The notes under the pieces are model-generated. The model saw only the letters and a program-made list of their open reading frames with translations. It was not told where the DNA came from and ran no database searches. The translations under genes were made by a program, and so were the position numbers. Shown here in pieces: positions 3,601-42,089 of a stretch of DNA of 42,316 nt (positions are counted from its first letter, which is position 1; every line of letters starts with the position of its first letter). Source of the stretch: an uncultured Clostridia bacterium (GTDB lineage: Bacteria > Bacillota > Clostridia > Christensenellales > UBA3700); assembly GCA_946623205.1 (NCBI GenBank), contig CAMOQV010000001.1, forward strand, positions 1 to 42,316, written 5' to 3'.

Positions 3601-6600
3601 TCATCTATAGTATGAACTTCTCCATCGTATTCAACCTCAATATGTTTTGGAGCAACAACTAATTTACGAGGAACGACTTGCACATATGATTCATCATTTG
3701 TGTACGTAATAATAAAGTTACTTGTAACTGTGTATCTCATCGTGCCATCGCTGTATGTTATTACAGGATTACTCATCGAAGCATAGCCATCTCCTGGAGT
3801 CTTTACGCTTAAGCTATATGTTGGGCTAAATGTGAATATTATTTGCTCTAGAGCATCATCTATTATGAATGCATTTGCTGCTTCACCTGCTGCTATATGA
3901 TCACCACCAAACACAATTGCTGGAGTATGAGCTTTACCATCATATTCAAATACCGAATGTTCCGCTTCTTCATCCCAAGCCACATTTAAAACTCTCGGAT
4001 TAATTGTTAATGTAACAACTGGAACATCCGATTCAATTATTGTTCCTTGTGCGTTTCTATAATTAACCTCTATTCCATCTTTCACGAAATGGACATTATA
4101 ATATCCTTTCATAAATAGATCAAAATCTATCATAGAGTAGCTATATACATAATCTGCATTTTGTACATCTTTTACGTTTGCAGTTGTATATGGGGCTAGA
4201 TTTAATTTATCGCCAAATACTAAATTAGTCTCATCTTGTAGCGGATCTCTATATGAAACGTTGTTATATTCGTCTTCTTCTTTAATAACTTCATGTATAT
4301 CTGGACTATGCTTTAATCCATCATATGTATATTCTGCGTTTGCTATAGAAATATAAATATGTATTGGGTTGATTGTCAATGTAACTGGGTTTGGTCCCAC
4401 TGGAAGAACCTGATAATAGTCAGCAGGGATCCTCTCGCCATAGTTATTATATGAAACTATTGGATAATACTCTTCAACAGTTTCTATTCCGTTAATTGTC
4501 TTTGTAATAGTATTGTTTTGAACATCGTAAACATACGTGCCAACACCAATAAAGCCTTTGTTTATAACTTCATCTCCTGGCAACAATTCATATCCATCTA
4601 CTGGATAGAATAAAATTTCCGCAAATTTCTCGTTGCCATCATATGTTACAGTGTTATCCTCTGTATGTAGATATACTGGTACAGGATTAATAGTTAGATT
4701 AACCATAGGGTTTGAGCCATCTTTTAATGCATTATCCCCATCTACAAATCCTAAAATTGTATAATTGCTTGTTACTTCTTCATTGTTAGCATTTAATATC
4801 TTTAATTCGCTTAATTCGAATTCGTAAACATAATCCCCATCTGCGATTGATTTAATCGTTGTTCTTGTAAAGTAGTCTACATTGAAATGGTCTCCATCCA
4901 TCAAGCCAACATCGCTACCAACTATTGGTTCATAGCTATCATTGACCTTCTTTACTACGCTAAAGGTTGGAGAGTGTGGTTGTCTATTATATATATAAAC
5001 TCCATTTACGGCCTTAACATAGATCTCTCTATTTACGATAAATAGAGTTACACCTTCTATGCCCTCATCAAACAATACGCCATCACTATCTACATAGTGA
5101 ATGTTATAATATGTAGCATACTCTAACGAAGCTGCCATCTTAATTTGAGCATTTAGTGGAGCGAAATGATATGTTCCAATTTCTTTGCCTTTATATGGTT
5201 CTTTATCTAATGTATCGCCAGATAGTAGATTTGTATTATTGAATGAAACTACATAAGAAACAACGCTATCAACAGTTTGCTTCATCACTTCTTGGATGCT
5301 TGGATAATGGTCTTTTCCGTCATAGATAATAGTCGTATCAGTCAATTGATAATATATATCTATCTTCTTAATAATTAACTCAACATAAGCCATACCTTGA
5401 GCAAATTCATTATCGTTTGAATCAATGTAATGAATTTCATAGTATGTTGGATCTTCGGCAGCCATTCTCTTTATTTGCATTTCAAATGGATTAAATGTAT
5501 ATTCGCCAACTTCTATTCTTTCAAATGGAGATAAATACAAATAATCATTTGTTAACAACATCGACTCTTCTGCATCGACATATTGAACTAAATCTGCATC
5601 CCAAACAACTTCTTTAATTGTTGGAGTATGCTTATTTCTATCGTAAGATACTTGAGTATCTATTAACTTGATATAAATATCTCTCTTTTCAATTTCAAAA
5701 GCTGATTGAGTATTATCATCTTTAAATGATATTTGATAATAATCAACAACTTGCTTATTAGCATCTACAATTGTAATACCTGCAATATCTATTGCATATT
5801 CCCCTATATCTGTTCTTTCATAAGGCGTAATATCAATTGAATCTCCATCAAGTAGGTTACTTTCAAAGCTATACTCTTTAATATTTGGATTTTGTTTTGC
5901 TCTATTATATGGAGTTGTATATATAGCATCTATGCTAATTACGATATCAATCTTTGTAATTTCTAATGTTACTTGAGCGTTTTCAACATTAATTGTGTTG
6001 TTCAATTTGTCTACATAACTAATGTTGTAATACGTACATGCAGTATATACATTGTTTTTATATTTAGCGATTGGATAATAATCCTCTATAGTTTCCTCGC
6101 CATTTACATTCATCGTAATCTTATTTGTATATAAATCATATGCATATGTGCCAATTGCGCTAAATACTGGAACGTATGCTATATCTCCTGTCAATATCTT
6201 TGTAGTTTCTTCTGTTGCATCAACATATGTACCTGATACGTCATCGTAATATACTTCTTTTATTATTGGACTATGAAGCTCTCTATCAAATGATGTTGAG
6301 TAATTATCTAACATCAAAGTAATTTCTATTGGAACAATTGTAATTGTTACAAATATATTACCTTGCGTTACTGGTACTGCGTCAACAGGCATACCATTTC
6401 CATCTAGTGTTATTGCATAATATTTAATTTCATAATAATCAACAACTTCTTGCGCACTATTTAAAACCTTTTTATCGTTTAGATCAAACGTATCTGTACC
6501 CACATCAGTTCTCTTATAATCTGAAGTTGAATATGAATCCCCAGATAATAAGGCAGCATAATCTGGGATAACCCCGGCATCGTGTGCATGGCCGTCGTAT

Positions 6601-9600
6601 GTGAATGTATATTCTATTAACCCAATTTTGAATTCTATTTTACTAATTATTATTTGAGCTGAAGATATATCATCTTTAAATGTTATGTTATAGCAATATG
6701 TCTCTATATCACCATTTGCGTCCTTAATGTTAATATCAGATATATCAACATCATATGATCCAATATCTGTTTGTCCATATGGTGTTAAATCTAGATAATC
6801 GCCAGAAATCAAATTGCCTTCATATGACACTTTTGGATATTGCACTTCTCTTGTATAAGAAGAATCTAAATCTTCTATCGTAACTAATACGTCTATCTTT
6901 TCAATTGTTAATGTAGATAGGATATTATCAAACGAAATATCGTAATACGAAACAGCACCATCTGATTCATTAACGACTTCTATATCGCTAATATCGATAT
7001 TATATACACCTGGGTTAATCTTTGCATATGGTGCAAGATTCAAGCTATCACCATTTAAGCAACTTCCTGATGTAATGCTAATTTCCGGACGTTGATAATC
7101 TCTTGTATATGTAGTAGTTTTTGATGGTTCAATAGTAACCATTAAAGCTCTCTTTGTAATATTGAATGTTATAATTGCATCATCTAAATCTATAGAATTG
7201 CCATCCAAATCTACAAAATAGATTTCATAATAACTAGCATCAGAATCCACATTATCTTCATTATGAAGAATTGGATAATAATGTTCCTCTAAAACTGCTT
7301 CGCCTATTGTTGCAGTAAGTGTTTGCGTTTTAAAGTTGAAAACATAGCTTCCTATTTCAATAAAGCTTCTAATTGTCAAATAATCGTCAGGTAACAATAC
7401 TGAAGAATTTGTTTCTGCAGATACATATTGAGCGCCATCCCATAGGACTTCTTTAATATGTGGTGCATGAGATGTCTTTGTATATTCATAAGACTCATCT
7501 TGTATTATTTGTAAATATAAATCGATTTTCTTAATAGTTAATGTAACGCTATCTTTATTATCCTTATAAATTACATTGTAGCAATCTGTAACATCTTCTT
7601 GCGTTTCGCTATTTAGAATCTTTAAATCATAATTTGTAAAACCATAAATTCCAACTTCTGATCTTAAATAACTATCTTTATCTATATAATCATTTTCTAG
7701 TAACTTCGATTCCCCGCTTATTACTTCTTCTATTTCTGGTCGAACATATCCTCTATCGTATTTATAAATTTTATCTGTTAACGCAATAGTAATAACTCTT
7801 GGGACAATTGTTAATGTAACTGATGTCTTATCCTCATAGCAGTGTATTTGATAATGATGAGTTACGTCTTCTCCTGTCTCTAGATTATGGAATTTAATTT
7901 CATCTGCATAATGAGTATATGTGCCAATTTCGCTATGCCACCAACCAACATCGCTATATGCATCTCCTGTCAATAAATAGCCTTCCAAAAACTGATTGCC
8001 TTCCAAATCTACTGATTTCATAGTTGGCATATAATTAGCTCTTGAATACTCTACTTCTCTATCCTCTAAGCGCAAATATACATCTATTTTTCTAATTGTT
8101 AGATTTGCTATAACATCTTCACTATCTAAATAAGGTGTATCTAATTCATCAACATAAGATATCTTATAATAATCAACATTAATTAATTCTTCATCAACTC
8201 GTCTTTGAATTATATTAAAATCTTCCTCTTCATCATCTGGCATTAGAATCTTATTTTGTGTTAGGTTATAGTTATATTCACCAACTTCGATAAACTCTCT
8301 TGTAATGAAGACATCCCCATCTAATAAGCTTCCACTCAATAATTCAAATGTTGGATGATGTGCTTGTCTATCAAAAGCAACATTAACATCTGTTATCCTT
8401 ATTGTTAATTCAATAGGATTAATTGTTAATGTTACAATTTCTTCAGTATTTATAGTGTTATCTTCATTGATAAAACCTAAAATTTCGTAATACGTCTTGA
8501 TATTTTCTTCATTTTGATCGTATATCTTTAGATTGTTTAAATCAAAGGTATATGTATAATCATCTTTGTTTAATCTCTCATCTAATGGCTTTACGTGCTC
8601 TCTTGTAAAGAAGCCAAGATTGAATCTATCTTCACCAAGAAGACCAATATCGCCATTTTCAATTTGCACATACGAAATGTCATTAGTTAATTCATCTACA
8701 ACTTTCTTAACTATAATAATCTCTGGACGATATTGTTTTACACCTTCAAATGTAAATGTCTTATTTATAGTCTTTATATAGAATGCTCTCTTTATAATAT
8801 TCAATGTAGCTACATCTTTGCCTTCAACAAATCTTACATCGTAATAGCTAACTTCATCACCATTTGAATTTCTAATCTTTACGTTTTTAATGTCATATTC
8901 ATAACTACCAACTATGCTGTTTCCAAATTCAGATACATCAATATAATCACCCGCAAGCAACTTGCTCTCGCCATCTATATATTCAAATGCATTGATAGCA
9001 TAGTAGTTATCATCAAATATAACTGTTTTTTCTTCATTTGTTAGAGTAACAATTCTCTTTAAAATCTTTAAGCTTCCGAAATCTTCATCTACAATTGTGA
9101 AATATTTTTCTGAGTTATAATCTAAAACGGCTCTAACAACAACCTCAGATTCTGCCAATACCGGGTTGTAATCTATCATCTTTGCAAGAACTGGATAGAT
9201 AGTACCTGTTCTATTATTTTCCGTATCATATATGCCAGGCAAATCTAACTCTTCTGGCACATATGGTTCATATTCTCCCGTTAGTGCATTTAATCTTAAT
9301 AGATAATATGTTGGTTCATCCTCGCTATATAAAGCAGTGCCGTCATATTCTTTTTCTTTGCTTTGAGTTGTTACCTTTAATTTAACTTTTTCTACAACTA
9401 AATCGCCTAATACCAACTTTAATTTATAGTTAGTACTCTCTATGCCATTTTCATAATCATCTTCGCTTTCATATATCTTAATATCCAAATCGTTTGTTAG
9501 TGTCCCTGGATATGTAAGTGTAGGAATCGAAGATCCTTTACTAACTCGAATTAGCGCATCTTTATATAACGTTCCTTCTACGTGTTCAAATCCAGCCGTT

Positions 9601-10772
9601 AAAGGTAGCCCATCGAACGTTTTTTTGTTTGCTAATGTATTAACTGTAATTTCTGCCTTTTCAACCTTTAGTGTGCCAAATCTTGGTACTATTTCATAGT
9701 TTGCCAAGTTTGTATTATCATTTGGATACCATTGCACAGAGTTTTGAATAGTTGAAGCGTTTGTAATCTCTTTAAAATCGCCAAACGAGAATCCTTCGCC
9801 TTGTGGTAATAAAGTAGAATCGTAAATTACTGTTTTGTCGCTAAGAGGCGTACCATCATATGTTTTTGTTTTATCGTTAGTCTTTATCTCTAGTCTTATC
9901 TTAGCTACATTTACTCTTCCATAGTTATAATGCACATCATAATATTTGTTTGTAACGTCTTTGCCATCTTTGTTCAATATTTTCATTGGCATATTGTTTG
10001 TGTATATGCCAGCATTATAACCAAATGTCTTTGGCGTAATATCTATAGAATCTGAATAACAAAGATTACCTGAAGATATATCATATTGAGATAATTCAAA
10101 TGTTTGGCCATTATATGTAGTATTTATACTTTCAGTATCGATTGTAATTCTCTTTTTCGTGAAATCAACTGCTTTTGTTTCTAATATAATGTTATAAGCA
10201 TCAGTTACATCTAAGCCTTCTTTGTTTATAATCTTCAACTTGTCTATATCTGGAGTAACATTAAATGTGTTTTCGTCTACATCATCAAATATAAATGAAT
10301 CACACTCTATCTTATCTGCATAAGCTAAATCGCTCGTTAATCTTAATATAGTGCCATATTCTATTTCATTATTTACAATGCAAATTGTAATGTCTTTCTT
10401 TTTGATGACAACACTAACTGCCTTTCCGTGTTGCGTCGCACCAAAAGATCTTTCAGAAACGGTTCTTATTTCATATTCACCTGGAGTTTCTGGCAATCCA
10501 GCAGTCCATTGTGTATCATTCTTCTCTTTATATTCTGTTGTAGATTTACTAAAGATACTATTTGATTCATAATAAACTCTCTCACCATAAGTTAAATCTG
10601 TTTCCCCAACGACAGGATCAAGAATCATACCATTAATACCAACTAATGTTGAAACGACAATAAAGACAGCAATCAAGCAAGCTATAATTAAAATCTTATG
10701 CTTAATTATTGAATCTCTAATTGATGCTAACGTCTCTAAACGTTTTTTGTAGATATCGTACGTTACTTTCAT
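651..10772 (-). CDS. giant (3,373 aa) type-II membrane-anchored surface protein: MBG-like repeat array plus transglutaminase-like cysteine-protease core
   Basis: Uninterrupted ORF whose ATG overlaps the upstream stop (TGATG). N-terminal K/R-rich segment followed by a hydrophobic helix, ILIIACLIAVFIVVSTLVGING. About 26 tandem repeats of roughly 85-110 aa (pattern K-x-I-x-I, Y-D/N/T-G/R-x-x-H-x-P, LL-x-GD, G-x-Y, YY-x-I, TLTI). Acidic linker ADEKDMPEDPEED. TgpA-like module with GVCRHYASAA (Cys codon 1818-1820) and HAWVEVYVYGLGWIAVEVTG (His codon 1689-1691). Ser/Gly/Asn linker, then about 3 more repeats. Confidence 0.9.
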   Translation of the reverse strand: MKVTYDIYKKRLETLASIRDSIIKHKILIIACLIAVFIVVSTLVGINGMILDPVVGETDLTYGERVYYESNSIFSKSTTEYKEKNDTQWTAGLPETPGEYEIRTVSERSFGATQHGKAVSVVIKKKDITICIVNNEIEYGTILRLTSDLAYADKIECDSFIFDDVDENTFNVTPDIDKLKIINKEGLDVTDAYNIILETKAVDFTKKRITIDTESINTTYNGQTFELSQYDISSGNLCYSDSIDITPKTFGYNAGIYTNNMPMKILNKDGKDVTNKYYDVHYNYGRVNVAKIRLEIKTNDKTKTYDGTPLSDKTVIYDSTLLPQGEGFSFGDFKEITNASTIQNSVQWYPNDNTNLANYEIVPRFGTLKVEKAEITVNTLANKKTFDGLPLTAGFEHVEGTLYKDALIRVSKGSSIPTLTYPGTLTNDLDIKIYESEDDYENGIESTNYKLKLVLGDLVVEKVKLKVTTQSKEKEYDGTALYSEDEPTYYLLRLNALTGEYEPYVPEELDLPGIYDTENNRTGTIYPVLAKMIDYNPVLAESEVVVRAVLDYNSEKYFTIVDEDFGSLKILKRIVTLTNEEKTVIFDDNYYAINAFEYIDGESKLLAGDYIDVSEFGNSIVGSYEYDIKNVKIRNSNGDEVSYYDVRFVEGKDVATLNIIKRAFYIKTINKTFTFEGVKQYRPEIIIVKKVVDELTNDISYVQIENGDIGLLGEDRFNLGFFTREHVKPLDERLNKDDYTYTFDLNNLKIYDQNEENIKTYYEILGFINEDNTINTEEIVTLTINPIELTIRITDVNVAFDRQAHHPTFELLSGSLLDGDVFITREFIEVGEYNYNLTQNKILMPDDEEEDFNIIQRRVDEELINVDYYKISYVDELDTPYLDSEDVIANLTIRKIDVYLRLEDREVEYSRANYMPTMKSVDLEGNQFLEGYLLTGDAYSDVGWWHSEIGTYTHYADEIKFHNLETGEDVTHHYQIHCYEDKTSVTLTIVPRVITIALTDKIYKYDRGYVRPEIEEVISGESKLLENDYIDKDSYLRSEVGIYGFTNYDLKILNSETQEDVTDCYNVIYKDNKDSVTLTIKKIDLYLQIIQDESYEYTKTSHAPHIKEVLWDGAQYVSAETNSSVLLPDDYLTIRSFIEIGSYVFNFKTQTLTATIGEAVLEEHYYPILHNEDNVDSDASYYEIYFVDLDGNSIDLDDAIITFNITKRALMVTIEPSKTTTYTRDYQRPEISITSGSCLNGDSLNLAPYAKINPGVYNIDISDIEVVNESDGAVSYYDISFDNILSTLTIEKIDVLVTIEDLDSSYTREVQYPKVSYEGNLISGDYLDLTPYGQTDIGSYDVDISDINIKDANGDIETYCYNITFKDDISSAQIIISKIEFKIGLIEYTFTYDGHAHDAGVIPDYAALLSGDSYSTSDYKRTDVGTDTFDLNDKKVLNSAQEVVDYYEIKYYAITLDGNGMPVDAVPVTQGNIFVTITIVPIEITLMLDNYSTSFDRELHSPIIKEVYYDDVSGTYVDATEETTKILTGDIAYVPVFSAIGTYAYDLYTNKITMNVNGEETIEDYYPIAKYKNNVYTACTYYNISYVDKLNNTINVENAQVTLEITKIDIVISIDAIYTTPYNRAKQNPNIKEYSFESNLLDGDSIDITPYERTDIGEYAIDIAGITIVDANKQVVDYYQISFKDDNTQSAFEIEKRDIYIKLIDTQVSYDRNKHTPTIKEVVWDADLVQYVDAEESMLLTNDYLYLSPFERIEVGEYTFNPFEMQIKRMAAEDPTYYEIHYIDSNDNEFAQGMAYVELIIKKIDIYYQLTDTTIIYDGKDHYPSIQEVMKQTVDSVVSYVVSFNNTNLLSGDTLDKEPYKGKEIGTYHFAPLNAQIKMAASLEYATYYNIHYVDSDGVLFDEGIEGVTLFIVNREIYVKAVNGVYIYNRQPHSPTFSVVKKVNDSYEPIVGSDVGLMDGDHFNVDYFTRTTIKSIADGDYVYEFELSELKILNANNEEVTSNYTILGFVDGDNALKDGSNPMVNLTINPVPVYLHTEDNTVTYDGNEKFAEILFYPVDGYELLPGDEVINKGFIGVGTYVYDVQNNTITKTINGIETVEEYYPIVSYNNYGERIPADYYQVLPVGPNPVTLTINPIHIYISIANAEYTYDGLKHSPDIHEVIKEEDEYNNVSYRDPLQDETNLVFGDKLNLAPYTTANVKDVQNADYVYSYSMIDFDLFMKGYYNVHFVKDGIEVNYRNAQGTIIESDVPVVTLTINPRVLNVAWDEEAEHSVFEYDGKAHTPAIVFGGDHIAAGEAANAFIIDDALEQIIFTFSPTYSLSVKTPGDGYASMSNPVITYSDGTMRYTVTSNFIITYTNDESYVQVVPRKLVVAPKHIEVEYDGEVHTIDEYEFIEGSLVGGDELRVLEFIGEGTEIGEYTVEIGEYILDNADCYDVELRTQTLNIVARQIYIQISNIEYEYDAKEHTPNISEYIIDNTKLLGDDIINVAEFAKTNAGEYVINTSDIKVLTYDADLDEYKEANYYAISFVDLAGTIVEFSSINLIIHKKLIYIRPSNASLEYTGEMQTAKDIEEILVDGIVDGKLQKVSRFVDGHYMVVNSVTFGGGRLELGLSENETYIIDYDISVFDGSDGDEDETNDVDVSENYEYNIDTKGNIEIIKRKITIKTGSKYAVYSGTPLMYDHYIIETGSVLEGDQLAVEIYGRIVDIGSVPNKASAKVYGEHEEFYEPVNIIFGTLTIVADEKDMPEDPEEDNIQDWDENFDYQDNNGADKESVLCMVTSDVAGSIYLKTEAYANYTGSTWNAEDSSIANRTFTYNEKTYSYNALTGLALGDLGVSKNNVTIKSFIDGALVPYYTAMEYMDPQELHTLEHDGFGYEIEYRDSTVGILTQLSQTTQDLRIIEQDYRMSNLFRSNYLTVPDGELKQYLISIINSQGFTISDSAVIQKVAQYIQKSAKYNLAYDPALDEESDFVYAFLTKYKEGVCRHYASAATLLYRTLGIPARLVVGLKGEVTEPNTKTSITKKQAHAWVEVYVYGLGWIAVEVTGSDSNSSGGASGSGSNNENSQDSDISSTVNVEDYFYDKEMYIHPVFTLGSFDPLNPDAELAPKQQVESYEFTNESGVYVNKGLFENLISKGYTYECEILGGQVGVGISRSKIMKFKLFDSYGNDVTNRFIIHMVDGQVEMTDKEIIVINVKNYIKTYTGQEISPKTNAWTIVSQPSNVVIEWTMQSIRGPIVNAGVIKAADLNVNEICVYSSSDVFRTTNIANNYRIVVNGNAVVVKPKYIAISTNSISQLITNGSIHQEVFLSQGTLVSGHRIACTFVTPQQIVGVQENKISELHIYDENGNDVTGSYSIKVTYGQIKLSLDPNDI
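2558..10400 (-). repeat. protein-level tandem array of about 26 diverged MBG-like (YDG ... NY/YY ... TLTI) Ig-like repeats inside the giant CDS
   Basis: Repeat boundaries were read from the translation (recurring TLTI/LTIN-P/K-x-I-x-I junctions). The copies are diverged at the protein level, and I saw no long identical DNA stretches. Confidence 0.7.
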
Positions 10773-12991
10773 CAGTACAATTCAAGCTCCCCTGATATTG
10801 TGGTTATTATGAAGTTCTTTGTTATATCTACTAATACAGTATTATCATTTTGATCTTTCTTACTATAGTAAATCTTTACTTCTTCTATATCGTTATCTGC
10901 TATGCCTTGCTCCGTTAGGATTGTTGGCATAGTTACTTTAACTACTAAATCTTCAATATATCCTTGATATTCATATGTGAAATCATCTTCATCACATTGC
11001 AATCTTGCACCTGGTGTATATGCAGCTCTTTCGCTTCCTGCAGTTACTGTAATTAAGACAGGAGTGATCTTTACTTCGCCAGGAATTGCTTCTATTTCAT
11101 AATCATCCGTAGCATCGACACCACCTCTTAAAATCTCAACTTTGAATGGATTTTCATACACACCTATATCTCTAAATGTGTTTTGGAACGTTAATCTCAA
11201 TTCGTCTGTTTCTGCTAAATGTCCTGCTTCAATAGAATATGCTTCAACTGTTCTATCTGTATTGTTATATGTAAAGTTTGCGTTCTTGCCTCTGATTCTC
11301 AAAAGATATTTATAAACATGCAAGGTGCCTGCACGTGTATAATCATAGCCATATTCATCACTTACATCTTCACCGTTTTCATCTACAATTACTGGCTCAA
11401 CATAGTTTGGCGTTTTACCAACTTCTGTCCTTGAAGATATGAAGTTATATGACACGATTGTGTGATTTGGTTCCAAATTGCCTGTATAGTAAACTTCTGT
11501 GCCGGCGCCTGTTAATGGTTGACCATTATATTCTCTTGAAACATCTTCAGTTGTTAAATATAAAATTGTTCTAACTTGCACAAATAATCCTTGCTCATAA
11601 GAAAAATCAAAATCATTTGTTACTTCATCGCCATCCGCGTTATAGATATGGAATTCTTCTATATTTGTTAAACCAGCATTACCAAGTTTTGTAAATCCTG
11701 ATGGATATTCAAAATCTATAATGCTACCACTCTTATCTGCATTTCCATAAAAACCAGCTGTATAATAGAACCCATCATATTTTTTTATTAAATCTATTAA
11801 ATCGCCTTCTAAGAAGTCGCCTTCTTTACGTGAATCATGTATAACCCCATCTTCGTCTGCGCCTAATGGATAATACCTACCATCAACGCCATCTTGAGGA
11901 ACTTGGCTTATCTTTGGTTTAATAACAGATTGATTATCCTCGTTTGAAACAGTTCTTCCTGTTGGATCTGTTGGAACCCAACCAACACCATCTACATATA
12001 TCTCTACCCACGCGTGCGCGTCTCTATTAGTTACTTCAACTTCTTCATCTTTTATAGCCTTTACGCTAAAGCCATCTACTCTTCTTGCTGGAATGCCTGC
12101 AGATCTATACATTAATACTGCGGCGCTCGCAAAGTGTTGGCAGATACCTTTTTTGTATTTAGACATAAAAGCAACTACGACATCGCTTTCGTTGTTCATA
12201 GCTCTATCGAATTCCAAATCATAAGATGCAGCATTTGAAACATAATTTGAAATGTTAGAATAAATATTCTTTGTATCTTTTGACCAGCCTTTATCTCTCA
12301 ATATATCTAAAAAATATTGTTTTGTTGTTTGAGGAACTGCTGTGTAATGTTCATATACGAAAGTTCTATATGCTAATTCTTCTTGCGAATATTGTGTTCT
12401 TGGCGATGATTTAACCATAGATGACAATGTATCTGCATTATATTTATTAGCGCCAAAATAAATTGCTGTATATGGGCTACTTACATCACCGCTATTTTCT
12501 ATATCACTTGTTTGAAGTTTAACACTGCTTCCCATTGGAGATGTGTAATATGGGAGTACATAGTTGTTGTAATTAGGATCAATCTTCATGCTATATATCA
12601 ATGCACCTTGCTCATCACAATATAACGCAGTTAAATAATCACATGAGATTGAATTATTTATTAATTCTTGGTATTCAACCGGATTTTGCCATGCATTATT
12701 TTCCATATCTCCATATGCAAAGGCTTTTAATAATACTGTTCCATTTGAATTTGCTGTAACTCTATAACAAACTCTTGTTTCACTATCCGAATCTGTTCCC
12801 AAATCCGAAGAGAATTGTCCATTTCTATTTAAAGCGTTAGCTAAAGCCTCAGAAAGGCCTGTCTTCATAACGCCATCTTCAAAGTTTACGAAAAAGCGCA
12901 CAACAAACAAAAGCAAAGCTGCAATAGTAAATATTGCTAACATGCCTACAAGATTCAATCCATGATTACTTTGCTTCTTCTCTTGTGCCAT
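10772..12991 (-). CDS. membrane-anchored transglutaminase-like protein (739 aa) with C-terminal MBG-like repeats; short paralogue of the giant protein
   Basis: N-terminal TM LVGMLAIFTIAALLLFVV. Canonical Transglut_core triad context: KKGICQHFASAA (Cys 12140-12142) and DAHAWVEIYVDGVGWVPTDPTG (His 12014-12016, DPT Asp). The pre-core region aligns with the giant protein (VLPYYTSP vs LVPYYTAM; AFAYGDMENNAW vs EAYANYTGSTW). The C-terminus has 3-4 YNG/YxI-type repeats. Confidence 0.88.
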   Translation of the reverse strand: MAQEKKQSNHGLNLVGMLAIFTIAALLLFVVRFFVNFEDGVMKTGLSEALANALNRNGQFSSDLGTDSDSETRVCYRVTANSNGTVLLKAFAYGDMENNAWQNPVEYQELINNSISCDYLTALYCDEQGALIYSMKIDPNYNNYVLPYYTSPMGSSVKLQTSDIENSGDVSSPYTAIYFGANKYNADTLSSMVKSSPRTQYSQEELAYRTFVYEHYTAVPQTTKQYFLDILRDKGWSKDTKNIYSNISNYVSNAASYDLEFDRAMNNESDVVVAFMSKYKKGICQHFASAAVLMYRSAGIPARRVDGFSVKAIKDEEVEVTNRDAHAWVEIYVDGVGWVPTDPTGRTVSNEDNQSVIKPKISQVPQDGVDGRYYPLGADEDGVIHDSRKEGDFLEGDLIDLIKKYDGFYYTAGFYGNADKSGSIIDFEYPSGFTKLGNAGLTNIEEFHIYNADGDEVTNDFDFSYEQGLFVQVRTILYLTTEDVSREYNGQPLTGAGTEVYYTGNLEPNHTIVSYNFISSRTEVGKTPNYVEPVIVDENGEDVSDEYGYDYTRAGTLHVYKYLLRIRGKNANFTYNNTDRTVEAYSIEAGHLAETDELRLTFQNTFRDIGVYENPFKVEILRGGVDATDDYEIEAIPGEVKITPVLITVTAGSERAAYTPGARLQCDEDDFTYEYQGYIEDLVVKVTMPTILTEQGIADNDIEEVKIYYSKKDQNDNTVLVDITKNFIITTISGELELY

Positions 12992-12992
12992 C

Positions 12993-14438
12993 CTAAATGT
13001 TATTTACAATGTTATGAATGTATTGTTTACATCTTGGCATTGCTTCCTCTCCAAATAGTTCATTTAGCTTGTCTACTAACCCATCTGCTCCATTTTTAAC
13101 GTAGATTGGGTTCTTCATCTCAAGCTTTCTCAATATCTTCTTAGATAAGATATCGTCTAACGCATCAAGTTCTTCTCCGCCACATCCAATGTAAATCGGT
13201 ACATACTTATTTATTTGCATCATAATTCTGTTACCAAATGTTACTTGGAAATGCTTCGTTAAGTAATTGTCTAATTCCTTTAACTTCTCTTTGTTTCTCT
13301 CTGTTAATGCATTCTCTTGTTGTGCATTTAATATCAATCGATCAAAATCTTTTGCACTTAAATGTAGATTAGAACTATTTCTTCCTCTAAATGGTTCACA
13401 CTTGTTATCCAAGTTTAGAATCATAGCTCTATCGTATACCTTATCTGAAATAGCAAATGTACTATCATCATTGTTTGCTGTTCCAATAAACCACATGTTT
13501 GTTGGTAATTGTATTTGTCCATCTTTCAAACTTGCTGGGTCTGTTGCCCACTTGTCTGAAACTACTTCCATATATCTTTCATCTGCTCTTGGTAATTCCA
13601 ATAAAGATAAGAATTCTGCAAAGTAATACTCAACTCTCGCAATATTCATTTCATCTAGCACTGTTATATAGATGTCTTCTGAATAATTCGCTTCATACAT
13701 CTTCTTTAATAGAGCTGTTTCATTAAAGTGCTTTGTGAATTCATTGTAATATCCAATAAGGTCTGTTCTTTCCTTCCACATAGGTTGAATTGGAATAACT
13801 GTTGATGGATTCTCTACAAATCTACCAAATGCATATGCAAGTGATGTCTTACCTGTACCAGACATACCTTGCAATATTAAGATGTGAGATACTCCAAGTC
13901 CAGCTATGAATGACCTAATATCTTCTGCTCTGTAATATAACCCTAATTCATTTGCTGAATAGTTTCTAAAATCATCACAGAACATCTCTAATGTAATATT
14001 GTTGATGTAATCATCCTTTGAATATGTCTCTCTCTTCTTATCTATTTGCTTCAATATGCTGAATCTAGATATGTTCTTGTTGTTCTTATCACTAGCTTTG
14101 CTTGAGCCTATACTTCCTGTTCCTTCAACTAATAATTCGTTTGGCAACGATAGTTGATATGAACCATGATGTCTTTGATATCTATACAAGGCTCTTGCAT
14201 TTTCTCTAATTCTTTTGAAGATAACGATAACAGTCACTAAAAGTACAATTGGAGTACCAATTAAAAGAGCGATTAAATATACGAAATCTATTACGTTTTG
14301 TTCTTCAATATATTTTTTGAACTCTTCAATATTAGCAACTATTACCAATTCCAAGATGAAAGCAACAATCACAACGATTATTGCGGCTACAATCATAACA
14401 TTAGTTAGAGTTATTTTCTTATTGTTTGAACTTTTCAT
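12993..14438 (-). CDS. membrane-anchored McrB-type AAA+ NTPase (481 aa, two N-terminal TM helices)
   Basis: Walker A GMSGTGKTS (13842-13868). Walker B plus following helix VLDEMNIARVEYYFAEFLSLLE (compare McrB IIDEINRANLSKVFGE..LLE). LPTNMWFIGTANNDDST (compare McrB NVYIIGLMNTADRS). Two hydrophobic helices lie at the N-terminus, followed by a basic stretch, KRIRENARALYRYQRHH. Confidence 0.8.
   Translation of the reverse strand: MKSSNNKKITLTNVMIVAAIIVVIVAFILELVIVANIEEFKKYIEEQNVIDFVYLIALLIGTPIVLLVTVIVIFKRIRENARALYRYQRHHGSYQLSLPNELLVEGTGSIGSSKASDKNNKNISRFSILKQIDKKRETYSKDDYINNITLEMFCDDFRNYSANELGLYYRAEDIRSFIAGLGVSHILILQGMSGTGKTSLAYAFGRFVENPSTVIPIQPMWKERTDLIGYYNEFTKHFNETALLKKMYEANYSEDIYITVLDEMNIARVEYYFAEFLSLLELPRADERYMEVVSDKWATDPASLKDGQIQLPTNMWFIGTANNDDSTFAISDKVYDRAMILNLDNKCEPFRGRNSSNLHLSAKDFDRLILNAQQENALTERNKEKLKELDNYLTKHFQVTFGNRIMMQINKYVPIYIGCGGEELDALDDILSKKILRKLEMKNPIYVKNGADGLVDKLNELFGEEAMPRCKQYIHNIVNNI
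12994..14110. repeat. direct repeat copy A (1,117 bp), apparently 100% identical to 15982-17098
   Basis: Base-by-base reading agrees. The encoded C-terminal ~370 aa are identical, as are the antisense shadow ORFs (13267-13626 = 16255-16614; 13499-13726 = 16487-16714). The offset is a constant 2,988 bp. Confidence 0.9.
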
Positions 14439-15981
14439 CTTCTACCTTCTTAAACAATATTTCTCTTTGTAGTCTCTTCTTGGTCTTCTTCCATGCCATT
14501 TTGTAATACTCGCCGATTACTTTGTATTCCTTTTCGATTAATTTAAACTTGTCCTCATCTGTATAGTCTTGATAATCTACTTCCAATCCAAGTTGATTTC
14601 TAAATGCATTATTTTGTGTAATTGCACTATCAAATTTCTCTCTTTGAAGCTCCATTGAATGTTGCATGTTTGCTAATTCTTTTTCAAGATTACCTTTTGC
14701 TTGAATTAAATTGCTTCTTTCGTTGTTCACTTGGCCTAGTTCTTGTTCAAAAACCGCTTGTCTTTGAGCTATTTTGTTTTCATAAGCTATTGCCATGCTT
14801 GCTTTTTCTTCTTGCAAGTTCGCAATATCGCCCTTTAGTGCTTTAATTGTTCCTTTTTGTTTTTCAATAACGCTATTTGCACTTTGAAGTTCTAGTAATT
14901 GAGATTCTAGATATTGGATTCTTTCATTTTGTATTAAAATGTATTCATCTATTTCCTTTCCGCTAAGCTTTTGCTTGCCTCTTAATTCTTGAATTCTCTC
15001 TTTAACTTCTTCAATTCTTTCAGCTTCTTCGATCTTCAATTGTTTTTCCATTTCTTCTTGAAGAGATTCGCCAAGTTCCATACTATGCATTTGCATTAAG
15101 AACAATAGCAACAAAACTGTGTTATTGAAATCGTCTTCAGCTTCTCTATCTAATTGTTTTTCAACAGCTTCTCTTGTAATAGAATATCCTGGTGCTGAAT
15201 ATGTAGATATATATTCATATAAGGCAAGAGCATATTTGAAGTTTGTTTCCATTTTTAAAACGTTAGTTTTTGTAATAGGTGGCTTAATCATTGGCACCTT
15301 GCTTACTTCTACCATAAGCGGAGTAGATAGCAATTTCAAAATAGCGTTTAAAACGTCTTCAATTCTTTGTACAACTTTAGCGTTAGCACTATCTTTAGAC
15401 AATGACATATTCTCATCTTCAATATTGATTGAATATGTAATATTTCTTTGTTTTGTTTTATATTTAGAGCCAATCTCTAAAACTGTGTAATATTTTCCTG
15501 AATATTCTGTAATCTTGTTATATCTTTCAGTTGTGAAGTCTCTTAAATAAGTTAATAGCAAATACAAGAATCTATTCTCATAAACAGCATAATCACTTAG
15601 CTTTTCTACGGTGTAAATCTTTTCTGGTCTTACTTCATCTGTTTCTTCGTCAATCTCTTTAATTAAAGATGCGTGCTTTGCAAGATGGCTAATAGATTCT
15701 TTTGATACACTCTTTGTCTTTTCAATTAAAACAACTTCTCCGTTTGTTCTAATGAATTGTCTTTCTTGCGAAATTGCCTTTTCTATATACTTTAGATTGT
15801 TTTCAATTTCGCTTATCCAATCTTCTGTTACTTCACACTTAATTCTTTCTATTGAAAGCTTAGATATCTTACTTGAACCAAGCGAGTTGATTTGACGTAA
15901 AAAGTTTTGGATACCCTTATCCTTTAGCGCAAACTTTTTATATTCAACAAACGCTCTATAGTAATAATCTATCGTTCTCAT
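14419..15981 (-). CDS. McrC-position partner protein: DUF2357-like N-terminal region plus long coiled coil, no nuclease domain (520 aa)
   Basis: Sandwiched between the two McrB-like genes and translationally coupled to both (TAATG at 15981; 20-nt overlap at 14419-14438). The YAVYENRFLYLLLTYL motif (about 15568-15582) resembles the ENRF(V/L)K motif of DUF2357/McrC-like proteins. Residues ~300-470 are heptad-rich and E/K/Q/L-rich (EEMEKQLKIEEAERIEEVKERIQELRGKQ...). No PD-(D/E)xK signature is visible. Confidence 0.6.
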   Translation of the reverse strand: MRTIDYYYRAFVEYKKFALKDKGIQNFLRQINSLGSSKISKLSIERIKCEVTEDWISEIENNLKYIEKAISQERQFIRTNGEVVLIEKTKSVSKESISHLAKHASLIKEIDEETDEVRPEKIYTVEKLSDYAVYENRFLYLLLTYLRDFTTERYNKITEYSGKYYTVLEIGSKYKTKQRNITYSINIEDENMSLSKDSANAKVVQRIEDVLNAILKLLSTPLMVEVSKVPMIKPPITKTNVLKMETNFKYALALYEYISTYSAPGYSITREAVEKQLDREAEDDFNNTVLLLLFLMQMHSMELGESLQEEMEKQLKIEEAERIEEVKERIQELRGKQKLSGKEIDEYILIQNERIQYLESQLLELQSANSVIEKQKGTIKALKGDIANLQEEKASMAIAYENKIAQRQAVFEQELGQVNNERSNLIQAKGNLEKELANMQHSMELQREKFDSAITQNNAFRNQLGLEVDYQDYTDEDKFKLIEKEYKVIGEYYKMAWKKTKKRLQREILFKKVEDEKFKQ

Positions 15982-17318
15982 TAAATGTTATTTACAATGT
16001 TATGAATGTATTGTTTACATCTTGGCATTGCTTCCTCTCCAAATAGTTCATTTAGCTTGTCTACTAACCCATCTGCTCCATTTTTAACGTAGATTGGGTT
16101 CTTCATCTCAAGCTTTCTCAATATCTTCTTAGATAAGATATCGTCTAACGCATCAAGTTCTTCTCCGCCACATCCAATGTAAATCGGTACATACTTATTT
16201 ATTTGCATCATAATTCTGTTACCAAATGTTACTTGGAAATGCTTCGTTAAGTAATTGTCTAATTCCTTTAACTTCTCTTTGTTTCTCTCTGTTAATGCAT
16301 TCTCTTGTTGTGCATTTAATATCAATCGATCAAAATCTTTTGCACTTAAATGTAGATTAGAACTATTTCTTCCTCTAAATGGTTCACACTTGTTATCCAA
16401 GTTTAGAATCATAGCTCTATCGTATACCTTATCTGAAATAGCAAATGTACTATCATCATTGTTTGCTGTTCCAATAAACCACATGTTTGTTGGTAATTGT
16501 ATTTGTCCATCTTTCAAACTTGCTGGGTCTGTTGCCCACTTGTCTGAAACTACTTCCATATATCTTTCATCTGCTCTTGGTAATTCCAATAAAGATAAGA
16601 ATTCTGCAAAGTAATACTCAACTCTCGCAATATTCATTTCATCTAGCACTGTTATATAGATGTCTTCTGAATAATTCGCTTCATACATCTTCTTTAATAG
16701 AGCTGTTTCATTAAAGTGCTTTGTGAATTCATTGTAATATCCAATAAGGTCTGTTCTTTCCTTCCACATAGGTTGAATTGGAATAACTGTTGATGGATTC
16801 TCTACAAATCTACCAAATGCATATGCAAGTGATGTCTTACCTGTACCAGACATACCTTGCAATATTAAGATGTGAGATACTCCAAGTCCAGCTATGAATG
16901 ACCTAATATCTTCTGCTCTGTAATATAACCCTAATTCATTTGCTGAATAGTTTCTAAAATCATCACAGAACATCTCTAATGTAATATTGTTGATGTAATC
17001 ATCCTTTGAATATGTCTCTCTCTTCTTATCTATTTGCTTCAATATGCTGAATCTAGATATGTTCTTGTTGTTCTTATCACTAGCTTTGCTTGAGCCTACA
17101 TTGCCAACGCCCTTAACCTTAATAGCCTTGTCTGGCAATTGAAGTTCAACTGTTTGTGTTGTTTCTCTAAAATCTTTTGCTTGCTTTGCTTGGATGATAA
17201 GCAAAATAACCATTATCGCAATGAAAGACACAATCAACGTAGAATAAATAATAATCGCATACGTTGATGTGAAAATATCTATGATTTCACTGGACAATAA
17301 AAATAACGTATTAAGCAT
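15981..17318 (-). CDS. membrane-anchored McrB-type AAA+ NTPase (445 aa, N-terminal TM anchor)
   Basis: Same AAA+ module as 12993-14438 (Walker A 16830-16856, Walker B DE 16638-16643), with a different N-terminus: IIIYSTLIVSFIAIMVILLIIQAKQAK. GGAGGA sits 6 nt upstream of the ATG. Confidence 0.8.
   Translation of the reverse strand: MLNTLFLLSSEIIDIFTSTYAIIIYSTLIVSFIAIMVILLIIQAKQAKDFRETTQTVELQLPDKAIKVKGVGNVGSSKASDKNNKNISRFSILKQIDKKRETYSKDDYINNITLEMFCDDFRNYSANELGLYYRAEDIRSFIAGLGVSHILILQGMSGTGKTSLAYAFGRFVENPSTVIPIQPMWKERTDLIGYYNEFTKHFNETALLKKMYEANYSEDIYITVLDEMNIARVEYYFAEFLSLLELPRADERYMEVVSDKWATDPASLKDGQIQLPTNMWFIGTANNDDSTFAISDKVYDRAMILNLDNKCEPFRGRNSSNLHLSAKDFDRLILNAQQENALTERNKEKLKELDNYLTKHFQVTFGNRIMMQINKYVPIYIGCGGEELDALDDILSKKILRKLEMKNPIYVKNGADGLVDKLNELFGEEAMPRCKQYIHNIVNNI
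15982..17098. repeat. direct repeat copy B (1,117 bp), apparently 100% identical to 12994-14110
   Basis: See copy A. Identity stops abruptly at 17098/17099 (copy A 14110/14111) and at the stop codons (TAA here, TAG in copy A). Confidence 0.9.
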
Positions 17319-18786
17319 CTATATCCTCCAAAAAATCATCAATATCTTCAATTTCGTCATCATCTTCATATTTTGAAGCTCTTATTAAATCGTCATCGCT
17401 AGCTAATTTTGCTTCATCATCTTCGTAATCTATCTCGTCTTCTTGCTTCTTTGCGAATCTATTTGAATAATACTCTTCATCTTGATCATTATTTGAAGAA
17501 CTTGCATTTGCATTTTCTTCATACATATAATCCATCAAAACTCTAGATAACTCTTCATTCTTTGTTCCGATTAAATGAGAAATCTTCTTTGTCATTTCCT
17601 TATCGTTTGCGCTACTAATAATTGGTGCAACTAAAGGCAAAATTCTTTCTATTAAGATAGTGTTTCTAAACTCTTTTTCTGGAATGCCAAATTGGCCAAG
17701 TAATGATACAAATCTTTCGATTTCAACACATTCTTTATTAGACAATTTAACTTCCTTTTGAATTGCCATAATACTATCAATGAACTTCCAATCATCTTCG
17801 CTCATCATGAACGAGCCCTTTTGCGAATCAATTCTATACAAATAGTCGTATGTAACATCACATGAACCTACAGACTCTACACGATCATTTGTTGGTCTTG
17901 GATGTATTTCAATGATTGTAGCTGCTTTTCTCAATTCTTTTGGATACCACTTAATTTCATCAAATGTTTCAATTGCGCAGAATACAATGTGAGATGGAAT
18001 TCTCAAATTCTTATTCTTGTATTCAAGTTCTACGTCGCTATATCTAACATTCAATAGTGGTAGAGTTGCAGCCAAAATATCTTGTTTTTCTGGACCAAGA
18101 TTTACAAGTTCTATTAATCTTAGTTCTTCAAGACCTAAATCTTTATCCAATGCTCTAACTAATGATTCTGTATTAAATACGATATCCATATCAAATTGCT
18201 TTGATTTAATACCAATACTTGCTAATTGATCAATAATAATTCCACCAAGCTCAATATCGTCTGTATTTAATACAACAAACTTTCCAGATAAAACTGCACT
18301 AATTACTCTTATTGCTTCTTTAGAATCTAGAGTAACTCCTCTTTCTTGTAAATTTTCTAGGAATATATCTAGAACATCTGAATATGCTACATAATTCTTA
18401 ACAATCTTTTGATTAACTCTTTCTCTCTTTGAAATATTAAATGCTGAATCAAAGAAATATTCGATTGCTTCATTTTTATTCTTTTGAGTATAACGAGATG
18501 TTAACATTTCAATCTGAGTTATCTTGCTATATGTTGGATCCTTTAATTTGTTTCTCATATTTACTGCGGATAATCCCAAAATTGCAAATGCTATAAATCC
18601 AGCAACCATCATCATGATGCATGCTGACAACCAAACTACATCAATATCACTTGTTGGAGAAAAACTTCTAACAAGTGGAACTGTCAAAGCAGCAAGGCCT
18701 GCAGCCATCATTACATATAAAGCTCTTTGCCAGCCGCTATCATACATTTTTAATGGAGACTTTTCATATGAATCATATCTTCTCAT
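17311..18786 (-). CDS. membrane-anchored degenerate paralogue of the McrB-type module with poly-acidic C-terminal tail (491 aa)
   Basis: Two N-terminal TM helices. The cytoplasmic part aligns by eye with the neighbouring ATPases but lacks the catalytic motifs: LNTDDIELGG replaces LQGMSGTGKTS, LIELVNLGPEKQDILAATLPLLN replaces VLDEMNIARVEYYFAEFLSLLE, and IPSHIVFCAIETFDE replaces LPTNMWFIGTANNDD. About 60 C-terminal residues are D/E-rich. AGGAGG RBS. Confidence 0.6.
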   Translation of the reverse strand: MRRYDSYEKSPLKMYDSGWQRALYVMMAAGLAALTVPLVRSFSPTSDIDVVWLSACIMMMVAGFIAFAILGLSAVNMRNKLKDPTYSKITQIEMLTSRYTQKNKNEAIEYFFDSAFNISKRERVNQKIVKNYVAYSDVLDIFLENLQERGVTLDSKEAIRVISAVLSGKFVVLNTDDIELGGIIIDQLASIGIKSKQFDMDIVFNTESLVRALDKDLGLEELRLIELVNLGPEKQDILAATLPLLNVRYSDVELEYKNKNLRIPSHIVFCAIETFDEIKWYPKELRKAATIIEIHPRPTNDRVESVGSCDVTYDYLYRIDSQKGSFMMSEDDWKFIDSIMAIQKEVKLSNKECVEIERFVSLLGQFGIPEKEFRNTILIERILPLVAPIISSANDKEMTKKISHLIGTKNEELSRVLMDYMYEENANASSSNNDQDEEYYSNRFAKKQEDEIDYEDDEAKLASDDDLIRASKYEDDDEIEDIDDFLEDIDA

Positions 18787-22418: not shown

Positions 22419-23579
22419 TTATGCTAAAAGCTCAAATTCAAGATATACAGGTTGGTGATCAGAGAACGCAAATCCGTCTATCTTCTTTGAACCTTGTTTT
22501 GTCTCTATTGTTTGGATATTCTTAACAGAGATATTGTCAGATACAATGTATCCATCAACTGTACAAACGAATGTGTTGTTTGGATCCCATTCGATATCGT
22601 TGTTTCTACATGTTGGCTTGTTGTCTGCTGCATAAATTGTAAAGCCATCAACAATTGGAGACTTCTTCTCGTCGTTAAACATATATGCTACCCAATCTGG
22701 AGCTCTCTTTGTCATAGCAAATGGTCTGTTTTCTGAAGTGTAAGCATATTGTGGATTATTCGTTAACAAATCATGATTGAAATCACCACCAACAACTACA
22801 TAGTGTCCTGCTTCTTTACAAGCACTCAAGAATCCGTTTAATTCTTTCATTTGTTGTTCTCTAATAGTACCGCCTTCATCGTATGCAGACATATGTGAAT
22901 TAACAATGTATAAATTCTTATCATTAGATACTTTAATTACACAAACAGCAAAACATCTATCTAAATCAAACAATTTAGAAAAGTCGTCTGCAATTGTATA
23001 TTGCTTTCTTTCTGCTGATTGAATCTTATATTTAGATAGAGTTGTTAGTCCTGCATTTACAGATCCATGCATATCGTATAGAGGATATGGCAAGAAAGCT
23101 GAATGGAAATTCACACAGTGGATTGAATCAAATCCAGTAAATGCATCAACAATTGCATTATGTTGGTTAACTTTATATGAACGAGTAGATTTCGTATCTA
23201 CTTCTTGGAACATCATAAAATCTGGATTCATCTCTTTAACTGCGTTAACAGATCCTGTTGTGTTGAACTCTACAACCTCTTTAGAAAAAGCTTTCGACCA
23301 ATGTCCAACCGTTGGATTTCCTGCATCATCGTAACCTGTGTCTAAAAAGAATGTGAAATCTTGAGAATATGCGCCAAAGCCTATGTTGTACGTAGTACAA
23401 GAATAAATCTCTCCTACACTTACTGTTTCAAGATTTGATTTGGAATTAATTTCTAGTGGCATATCGCCTAACCTAGAATAACTTAAGAAAATATACCCTA
23501 CATAGCCACCGGCAAATACAATAATCAAACCAATAACTGCTGCTAGAGTAATTAATGTGATTTTTAATCCTTTCTTCAT
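22419..23579 (-). CDS. membrane-anchored endonuclease/exonuclease/phosphatase (EEP) family protein
   Basis: N-terminal TM. EEP motifs FMMFQEVD, GGDFNHD and the C-terminal SDHQPV. Confidence 0.75.
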   Translation of the reverse strand: MKKGLKITLITLAAVIGLIIVFAGGYVGYIFLSYSRLGDMPLEINSKSNLETVSVGEIYSCTTYNIGFGAYSQDFTFFLDTGYDDAGNPTVGHWSKAFSKEVVEFNTTGSVNAVKEMNPDFMMFQEVDTKSTRSYKVNQHNAIVDAFTGFDSIHCVNFHSAFLPYPLYDMHGSVNAGLTTLSKYKIQSAERKQYTIADDFSKLFDLDRCFAVCVIKVSNDKNLYIVNSHMSAYDEGGTIREQQMKELNGFLSACKEAGHYVVVGGDFNHDLLTNNPQYAYTSENRPFAMTKRAPDWVAYMFNDEKKSPIVDGFTIYAADNKPTCRNNDIEWDPNNTFVCTVDGYIVSDNISVKNIQTIETKQGSKKIDGFAFSDHQPVYLEFELLA

Positions 23580-42079: not shown

Positions 42080-42089
42080 AAATAATTAT

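Follow-up and report, generated by a model that had tools for sequence, protein, structure and literature searches.

We propose that a 520-amino-acid (aa) protein, encoded on the minus strand of a 42,316-nucleotide (nt) stretch of DNA from an uncultured Clostridia bacterium (GenBank assembly GCA_946623205.1, contig CAMOQV010000001.1; the whole stretch is called the window below), is an McrC-like activator of McrB-like ATPases. By analogy with the McrBC system, it would insert into the pore of a membrane-tethered ATPase ring, with a coiled coil replacing the McrC nuclease architecturally and with an output on transglutaminase-like proteins encoded in the same gene cassette; we give this reading a probability of roughly 0.65. 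The gene lies between two genes for McrB-like ATPases. It overlaps each of them: by the single base common to its ATG and the stop codon of the upstream gene (TAATG, positions 15981–15983), and by the 20 nt at its 3' end in which the downstream gene begins (14419–14438). A first-pass annotation of this DNA, made from the sequence without database searches, had suggested that the gene is translationally coupled to McrB-like genes on both sides, and both the overlaps and the identity of the two neighbours as members of the McrB family bear this out.

On sequence grounds, the N-terminal domain of the 520-aa protein is homologous to the DUF2357/McrC N-terminal domain. The first-pass annotation had read the N-terminus as DUF2357/McrC-like and had named a profile search against DUF2357 as a check. 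Our analysis supports this reading at the level of the family: the family consensus matches PF09823 (DUF2357) with 32.2 bits (E 8e-8), above the gathering score of 23.3, and eight family members pass at 24.4–31.2 bits in a common register, in which protein residues ~56–180 correspond to profile positions ~90–215. The 520-aa protein itself falls just below the cut-off, and its DUF2357 membership is therefore a matter of family-level, transitive homology. A lack of significant similarity to such domains, which the first-pass annotation had listed among the results that would contradict it, was thus not observed. In a Pfam scan of 41 family members DUF2357 was matched by 17, and no other family was recurrent. 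The family is large: at 90% identity it comprises more than 1111 matching clusters, and at 50% identity the N-terminal domain is matched by 1216 clusters with E <= 1e-3, the domain being located at residues 1–305 in every case.

A tblastn search of plasmids with the family consensus retrieved two proteins, one encoded on a Rhodoferax plasmid (NZ_CP019242, locus L088) and one on a Nostoc plasmid (AP018224, locus L089). The former carries a DUF2357 annotation, and the Pfam cut-off for this family is passed by both. In hhalign the alignment of the N-terminal domain matched these two DUF2357 proteins with probabilities of 95.2% (E 2.7e-8, 200 columns) and 96.4% (E 1e-9, 183 columns), and the 520-aa protein itself was aligned by BLASTP with the Rhodoferax protein over aa 59–256 with E 2e-12. 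All three share the motifs HLAxH, YENR and (K/R)TN(V/I)L, which in the 520-aa protein occur as HLAKH (aa 99–103), YENR (aa 134–137) and KTNVL (aa 238–242). The second of them belongs to the ENRF-type motif that had been pointed out in the first-pass annotation and that we confirm as YAVYENRFLYLLLTYL at aa 131–146; Y134, E135, N136 and F138 are invariant across 76 homologs, and R137 is kept in at least 90% of these. Each plasmid gene lies directly downstream of a gene for a ~790-aa protein composed of a long coiled coil and an AAA_5 domain. These two loci contain the closest annotated relatives and have the appearance of CoCoNuT-like operons, in which a coiled coil of ~450 aa is fused to an McrB-like ATPase and followed by the DUF2357 protein. 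The Nostoc protein additionally has C-terminal CxxC motifs resembling a zinc ribbon, and a Ser/Thr kinase gene is found two genes upstream of the Nostoc ATPase.

The best-conserved part of the family is a segment within this domain (aa 72–128) that we regard as a putative finger. R74, Q75, F76, I77, G81, E87, H99, L100 and H103 are invariant in the 76 sequences, K90 is also among the conserved residues, and the finger together with the adjoining helical bundle contains more than 30 invariant positions. The finger of McrC has been described as a helical bundle, a beta stalk and a loop-helix-loop tip (PMC7680126). In our AlphaFold2 model of the N-terminal domain (predicted local distance difference test score, pLDDT, 77.8; full-length model 76.6) the predicted order is helix 54–71, strand 82–84, helix 94–103, strand 122–124 and helix 130–160, and this arrangement of strand, tip helix and strand between two long helices is suggestive of the layout of the McrC finger. 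The pLDDT of the finger itself is below 57; the combination of highest conservation with low model confidence is what would be expected of a segment that folds on a partner. Candidate basic residues for contacts within a pore are R74, K88, K90 and R137.

The C-terminal half of the protein is of a different kind. Its AlphaFold2 model contains helices at aa 304–340, 344–463 (pLDDT up to ~90) and 476–519, and no strand past residue 276. The first-pass annotation had described aa ~300–470 as a continuous heptad-like helix: a helical, heptad-rich rod is indeed predicted, but it is not continuous in its heptads, which are interrupted by register shifts. Local windowed heptad scores reach maxima of 0.6–0.8, and a global Fourier test at 3.5 residues is marginal (p ~0.06–0.09) because of these shifts. 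Across 89 homologs the spacer between the N-terminal domain and the C-terminal motif varies from 167 to 368 aa, is poor in Pro and Gly (3%) and rich in E, K, Q, R and L (53%); family-wide, heptad-compatible 28-residue windows make up 51% of the spacer versus 20% of the N-terminal domain. The full-length family profile matches apolipoprotein, SMC and tropomyosin in the PDB. Beyond the rod, the end helix carries invariant or near-invariant F479, E483, W497, K501, I504 and R505, so that both ends of the protein are conserved and the sequence of the rod between them varies.

No nuclease family was found in the protein by Pfam, NCBIfam or PADLOC (the latter two returned no match of any kind), and no nuclease fold by Foldseek with the full-length and N-terminal-domain models. 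The absence of a nuclease signature noted in the first-pass annotation is thus corroborated, and a cryptic nuclease fold in the C-terminal half, which it had named beforehand as a finding that would speak against its reading, was detected by neither profile nor fold search. We conclude that the nuclease is gone from this protein and that a coiled-coil spacer of 160–370 residues with a conserved C-terminal helix is found in its place. A relic PD-(D/E)xK fold in aa 160–300 was also considered and rejected, as its order of strands and helices is not that of this region and fold searches returned nothing similar.

With the coiled coil making up half or more of the protein, and its length variable among homologs, one could suppose that the protein is mainly a structural scaffold of the cytoskeletal or tethering type, in which the DUF2357-like domain is vestigial and has ceased to regulate the ATPases; the lack of a structural match to McrC in Foldseek would agree with this. 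However, it is the finger and bundle that show the strongest conservation, whereas the rod sequence varies freely, and the gene is strictly coupled to both ATPase genes. We consider such a purely structural role very improbable.

Both flanking ATPases match Pfam AAA_5 (E 2e-7). The sole PDB sequence matched by their family profile is E. coli McrB (E 2e-5), and the coiled-coil-fused McrB-like ATPase of Rhodoferax is 39% identical to them (E 1e-57). The motifs GMSGTGKT, LDEMN and GTANNDDS are invariant in the family, and no aromatic residue follows the GKT of Walker A. The counterparts of the GTANNDDS loop in the Rhodoferax and Nostoc ATPases are NHDE and NTDE, with GTAN-x-D-(D/E) in common. Judged by these motifs, the flanking ATPases belong to the NxD(E/D) branch of McrB-like NTPases, whose signature of "NxD followed by E/D" defines the branch with CoCoNuT and CoCoPALM (Bell et al. 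2024, PMC11090510). The NNDD of the loop also aligns without gaps to the NTAD of E. coli McrB; a reading of the loop as NxxD, based on that ungapped alignment, was dropped in view of the 39%-identical relatives with NHDE and NTDE. A second invariant stretch, DKVYDRAM (aa ~296–303 of the 445-aa copy), is equivalent to DYALRRRF of E. coli McrB. In the ungapped alignment Ala occupies the McrB arginine-finger position (R349 in E. coli, R426 in T. gammatolerans) and the adjacent Arg alone is kept; the YDRA feature is common to the Rhodoferax and Nostoc coiled-coil ATPases.

In both proteins the AAA+ module is preceded by predicted transmembrane (TM) helices and a short low-complexity linker (~40–70 aa), with neither a DNA reader nor a coiled coil in that region. 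The upstream ATPase has one helix and the downstream ATPase two, a pattern that holds in 26 of 29 loci. The 520-aa protein has no TM segment and is predicted to be cytoplasmic, in contrast to at least one TM segment in every other protein of the operon.

In the mechanism that we envisage, the two ATPase isoforms, which have the same motor and either a one-helix or a two-helix anchor, would form a hexameric ring under the membrane, possibly with the participation of a degenerate third paralog encoded further upstream. The finger of the 520-aa protein would enter the pore of this ring and stimulate hydrolysis via the NxD loop, as in McrC, for which a finger, activation by Arg/Lys via the consensus loop and dimers bridging two hexamers have been reported (PMC7680126). 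The coiled coil would assume the architectural job of the nuclease domain, either as a dimer bridging two rings or as a lever or spacer offering the C-terminal helix to a partner. The output would be on the membrane-anchored transglutaminase-like giants (for instance their assembly, activation or cross-linking at the cell surface) and not on nucleic acid. The role of an NTPase-activating stalk or strut, which the first-pass annotation had proposed, is one that we likewise infer from the analogy with McrC. Like McrC of the McrBC Type IV restriction systems (E. coli, T. gammatolerans; PMC7680126), the 520-aa protein has a DUF2357-type N-terminal domain, in which two long helices are predicted to enclose a finger-like insert, is encoded by a gene coupled to that of an McrB-family AAA+ NTPase, and would be expected to act as a pore-inserted activator of hydrolysis. 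Unlike McrC, it has a coiled coil and a C-terminal helix instead of a PD-(D/E)xK nuclease, and its gene is flanked by two ATPase genes, the products of which are membrane-anchored and have no DNA-reader domain.

Several observations weigh against this mechanism. The score of the 520-aa protein itself against PF09823 is 21.0 bits (E 2.2e-4), below the gathering score. Similarity to solved McrC chains was detected neither in sequence nor by Foldseek: the search with the N-terminal-domain model returned no McrC match nor any other, and that with the full-length model against the PDB gave weak helical matches such as TolC, since the rod dominates the search. Searched against PDB sequences, the family profiles did not reach McrC chains, the full-length profile finding coiled-coil proteins only and the N-terminal-domain profile nothing, and E. 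coli McrC on its own, which is a member of PF10117 and not of PF09823, was not matched by the family in hhalign. With Ala in place of the second arginine of McrB, the chemistry of hydrolysis in the ATPases may differ from that of McrB. Locus L036 keeps the upstream ATPase only and locus L087 the downstream one only, and thus the two anchor types are not strictly required. Finally, pore insertion, stimulation and dimerization are all proposed by analogy, and the link to the transglutaminase-like proteins is suggested solely by the conserved order of the genes.

The two ATPase genes end in a perfect direct repeat of 1117 bp, 100% identical between the copies in the window. Over the last ~1.1 kb at the 3' end, the copies differ by 0–3 bases in each of the first four loci analysed, whereas orthologs from different genomes share only 54–86% protein identity. 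Self-comparison of related loci with both ATPases (L001, L004–L006 and L012–L086 were compared) gave DNA identities of mostly 97.7–100% for the repeat, with a few at 82–96%; in the cultured isolate Anaerocaecibacter muris CLA-AA-M11 (locus L074) the flanking repeat is at 98.5%, and independent assemblies show the same ATPase layout with 0–16 mismatches between the copies. The two copies continue to differ in their 5' anchor regions, and both types of anchor are conserved from genome to genome. The recurrence of the arrangement and the conservation of the distinct anchors show, therefore, that the ATPase duplication is real, and that it has been homogenized by gene conversion; as the converted tract starts at the linker that follows the TM anchors and extends as far as the stop codon, the pair is a clear case of domain-limited concerted evolution.

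Repeats of this kind are poorly handled by short-read assemblers, and the full identity of the copies in the window, together with the many contigs that break at the repeat, might be taken as signs of an assembly artefact, with a single ATPase gene beside the gene of the 520-aa protein. That explanation is hardly credible given that the 5' anchors differ and each type recurs across genomes, and that the same layout is found in independent assemblies, including the cultured isolate and the diverged cases. Of 37 short contigs that carry the gene of the 520-aa protein (<4.1 kb, loci L009–L082), one end lies in the upstream ATPase gene in 36, and the other in the downstream ATPase gene in 26. Because assemblies break in the repeat, the gene is often stranded on a contig of 2–3.5 kb; the fragmentation of the locus is thus a consequence of the ATPase paralogs being kept near-identical.

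Table 1. Features of the cassette around the 520-aa protein (positions in the window, or in the related locus that is named)
Feature	Position	Strand	Description
Gene of the 520-aa protein	14419..15981	minus	real open reading frame, ATG start; DUF2357/McrC-N-like N-terminal domain, coiled-coil rod and conserved C-terminal helix
DUF2357-homologous stretch, aa 57–280	15142..15813	minus	Pfam 57–181; hhalign q71–280 and q72–263; BLASTP 59–256
Putative finger, aa 72–128	15598..15768	minus	predicted strand 82–84, tip helix 94–103, strand 122–124; conservation; McrC finger description (PMC7680126)
Coiled-coil rod, aa 304–463 (helices 304–340, 344–463)	14593..15072	minus	AlphaFold2, heptad scoring, family profile
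C-terminal basic/aromatic helix, aa 476–519	14425..14556	minus	AlphaFold2 and conservation
Upstream McrB-like AAA+ NTPase, 445 aa	15981..17318	minus	one N-terminal TM helix; Walker A GMSGTGKT, Walker B LDEMN, consensus loop NNDD
Downstream McrB-like AAA+ NTPase, 481 aa	12993..14438	minus	two N-terminal TM helices; soluble domain identical to the upstream copy
Repeat copy 1, 1117 bp	12994..14110	.	last 372 codons of the downstream ATPase gene
Repeat copy 2, 1117 bp	15982..17098	.	last 372 codons of the upstream ATPase gene; offset 2988 bp
491-aa TM protein	17311..18786	minus	degenerate McrB-like domain (Walker A lost); TM helix before the domain, very acidic tail after it
739-aa protein	10772..12991	minus	N-terminal TM anchor; transglutaminase-like core outside the cytoplasm, with the residues of a Cys-His-Asp motif seen in its translated sequence
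3373-aa giant protein	651..10772	minus	N-terminal TM anchor, repeated domains, transglutaminase-like core at aa 2943–3044
338-aa TM protein with BspA-type LRR_5 repeats and 250-aa protein with three TM helices	18797..20555	minus	overlapping genes upstream in the same operon; both kept in L001
GH3_C/Fn3-like proteins with degenerate McrB-like domain	L004 5298–8681; L005 5258–8623; L006 4924–8580		

The cassette forms a minus-strand operon that runs from about position 20555 down to 651 (Table 1), and all of its proteins other than the 520-aa protein have a predicted N-terminal membrane anchor. Its conserved order is pseudo-ATPase, ATPase, McrC-like protein, ATPase, one to several transglutaminase-like proteins and a giant repeat protein; the part from the first ATPase to the transglutaminase-like gene is found in all 31 long loci mapped, except the two single-ATPase loci. 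The degenerate McrB-like domain of the 491-aa protein corresponds to the C-terminal part of GH3_C/Fn3-like proteins of 1120–1218 aa, encoded at the same position in other genomes. Related loci contain one to five tandem transglutaminase-like genes (five in L086). The 3373-aa protein has many internal repeats that by eye are of the MBG/YDG-like adhesin type, with a faint YDG match in L006 only.

Relatives of the 520-aa protein are present in 274 species genomes, essentially all of them Clostridia and mostly metagenome-assembled, and none was found in IMG/VR. This distribution bears on the possibility that the protein is a CnuC/McrC-like subunit of a defence system, either CoCoNuT-like or an abortive-infection variant of Type IV restriction, with an effector located elsewhere, for example in the transglutaminase-like proteins with their cysteine-protease fold or in a protein of the EEP family encoded nearby. 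The ATPases and the N-terminal domain are indeed closest to plasmid-borne operons of CoCoNuT-like build, the PADLOC candidate PDC-M26A matches the ATPase with E 1e-43, and McrC homologs of the NxD branch, those of CoCoNuTs included, often have no nuclease (Bell et al. 2024, PMC11090510). On the other hand, the ATPases carry TM anchors in place of reader domains or coiled coils, and this membrane anchoring argues that the system is not of the restriction type. Furthermore, Pfam scans of all cassette proteins revealed neither HEPN nor any other nuclease, the partner proteins are predicted to be extracytoplasmic in their bulk, the cassette is syntenic over the 274 Clostridia genomes and is neighboured by housekeeping genes (e.g. 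those of pyruvate formate-lyase, hydrogenase and malic enzyme) and does not lie in islands, viral contigs yielded no relatives, and the EEP gene is not part of the cassette in L004–L006. A defence function therefore appears improbable to us. The TM-anchored protein of the endonuclease/exonuclease/phosphatase (EEP) family itself is encoded at 22419–23579 (minus strand), upstream of DUF975 and HAD genes that lie between it and the cassette. This order is kept in the closest relative, L001, but not in L004–L006, and the gene is probably outside the cassette.

Compared directly with CnuC and CnuB of the CoCoNuT systems (PMC11090510), the proteins described here share the N-x-D-(D/E) loop and the YDRA motif, and the NxD branch to which CoCoNuT belongs already includes McrC homologs that lack the nuclease and others that bear a coiled coil. 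In contrast to CoCoNuTs, only the McrC homolog carries the coiled coil, at its C-terminus, and the ATPase has none; HEPN and other tandem nucleases are missing, as are CSD, Zn-ribbon and Ig domains and a helicase; and the cassette is chromosomal, in a housekeeping setting, with membrane anchors and transglutaminase-like partners.

Another classification, which would be compatible with the proposed mechanism, is that the cassette is a member of the CoCoPALM systems. These have been defined in one sentence as containing an NxD McrB-like GTPase with an FtsB-like N-terminal fusion of TM and coiled coil and an McrC homolog that is likewise fused to coiled coils, and as being associated, via proteins of the signal-peptidase family, with the assembly of pili or surface fibres (Bell et al. 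2024, PMC11090510). The NxD(D) loop and TM N-terminus of the ATPases, the coiled coil on the McrC homolog and the association with extracytoplasmic assembly-type enzymes and giant repeat proteins all agree with this definition. However, the anchors show no similarity to FtsB or DivIC at Pfam E <= 1, the ATPases have no detectable coiled coil, and transglutaminase-like proteins take the place of a signal-peptidase-family protein, which was not detected by Pfam and NCBIfam in the window cassette or among precomputed Pfam matches of L001 and L004–L006, where very divergent homologs could escape. Neither the text of Bell et al. 2024 nor the supplements searched contain the word "transglutaminase". 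As far as the brief published description permits a comparison, we think membership in CoCoPALM unlikely, though more likely than a role in defence.

The closest functional analogy to our proposed membrane-tethered McrB-McrC machine is offered by clusters of MoxR, DUF58 and transmembrane transglutaminase genes (e.g. the bifidobacterial PFNA operon; PMC6803598), in which, as here, the gene of an AAA+ ATPase occurs with those of a small partner or adaptor and of a transglutaminase-like protein anchored in the membrane, and Fn3-type surface proteins are nearby (here, Fn3-like domains in L004–L006). The TM-anchored Transglut_core proteins are the only components common to both, and the adaptors are not homologous: in our cassette the ATPase is McrB-like (AAA_5) and not MoxR (AAA_3), and the partner consists of DUF2357 and a coiled coil and not of DUF58/vWA. 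A precedent for an McrB-family protein that has moved from restriction to a cellular role, related to the envelope or to division, is PcdA of Staphylococcus aureus (PMC10602043). PcdA differs in having degraded Walker motifs, EVE reader domains and no partner with an McrC N-terminal domain, whereas here the Walker motifs are intact and an McrC-like partner is kept.

As far as is known, McrBC-type motors serve almost exclusively in restriction or defence. We tentatively suggest, at rather less than even odds, that in gut Clostridia a complete McrB-McrC pair has moved from the restriction of nucleic acids into a vertically inherited envelope machine, in which a membrane-tethered ring of two anchor isoforms, their motor domains held identical by gene conversion, with a pseudo-ATPase that bears an extracellular domain in other clades, would be plugged by the 520-aa protein and would drive or gate how the giant extracytoplasmic transglutaminase-like surface proteins are assembled, activated or cross-linked. 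If this is true, it would be the first non-defence function of an intact McrBC-type motor, and the cassette would be an McrB-based counterpart of the unexplained MoxR-DUF58-transglutaminase clusters. The retention of the activator domain, the replacement of the nuclease by a rod and the location of the motor at the membrane beside extracellular giants suggest that the McrB-McrC engine may be a general-purpose module. The coupling of GTP hydrolysis to output by McrC is still debated.

Nuclease-less, coiled-coil McrC homologs have already been reported for CoCoNuT and CoCoPALM (Bell et al. 2024, PMC11090510), and the core of our finding is in this respect not new in kind. Searches of the literature on McrB-like proteins and transglutaminases, on McrC with coiled coils or membranes, and on CoCoPALM retrieved no description of the cassette. 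As far as these searches go, the association with transglutaminase-like proteins, the two concertedly evolving ATPase genes with different anchors around the gene of the 520-aa protein, the pseudo-ATPase and the vertical, housekeeping-like distribution are undescribed. The first-pass annotation had missed the membrane anchors on the ATPases, the concerted evolution of the ATPase pair, the transglutaminase-like giants, the degenerate third ATPase, the occurrence in 274 Clostridia species genomes among housekeeping genes and the prior reports on CoCoNuT and CoCoPALM. The cassette is abundant yet unnamed, most of its carriers being uncultured gut Clostridia, and the one cultured carrier, A. muris, makes experiments possible.

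Two further features of the window lie away from the cassette. A 1225-aa protein encoded at 27933–31610 (minus strand) combines an N-terminal ABC ATPase and C-terminal FtsX-like permease domains in one chain, and at the edge of the window (42002–42164, minus strand) there are two tandem tRNA-Met (CAT) genes 10 nt apart.

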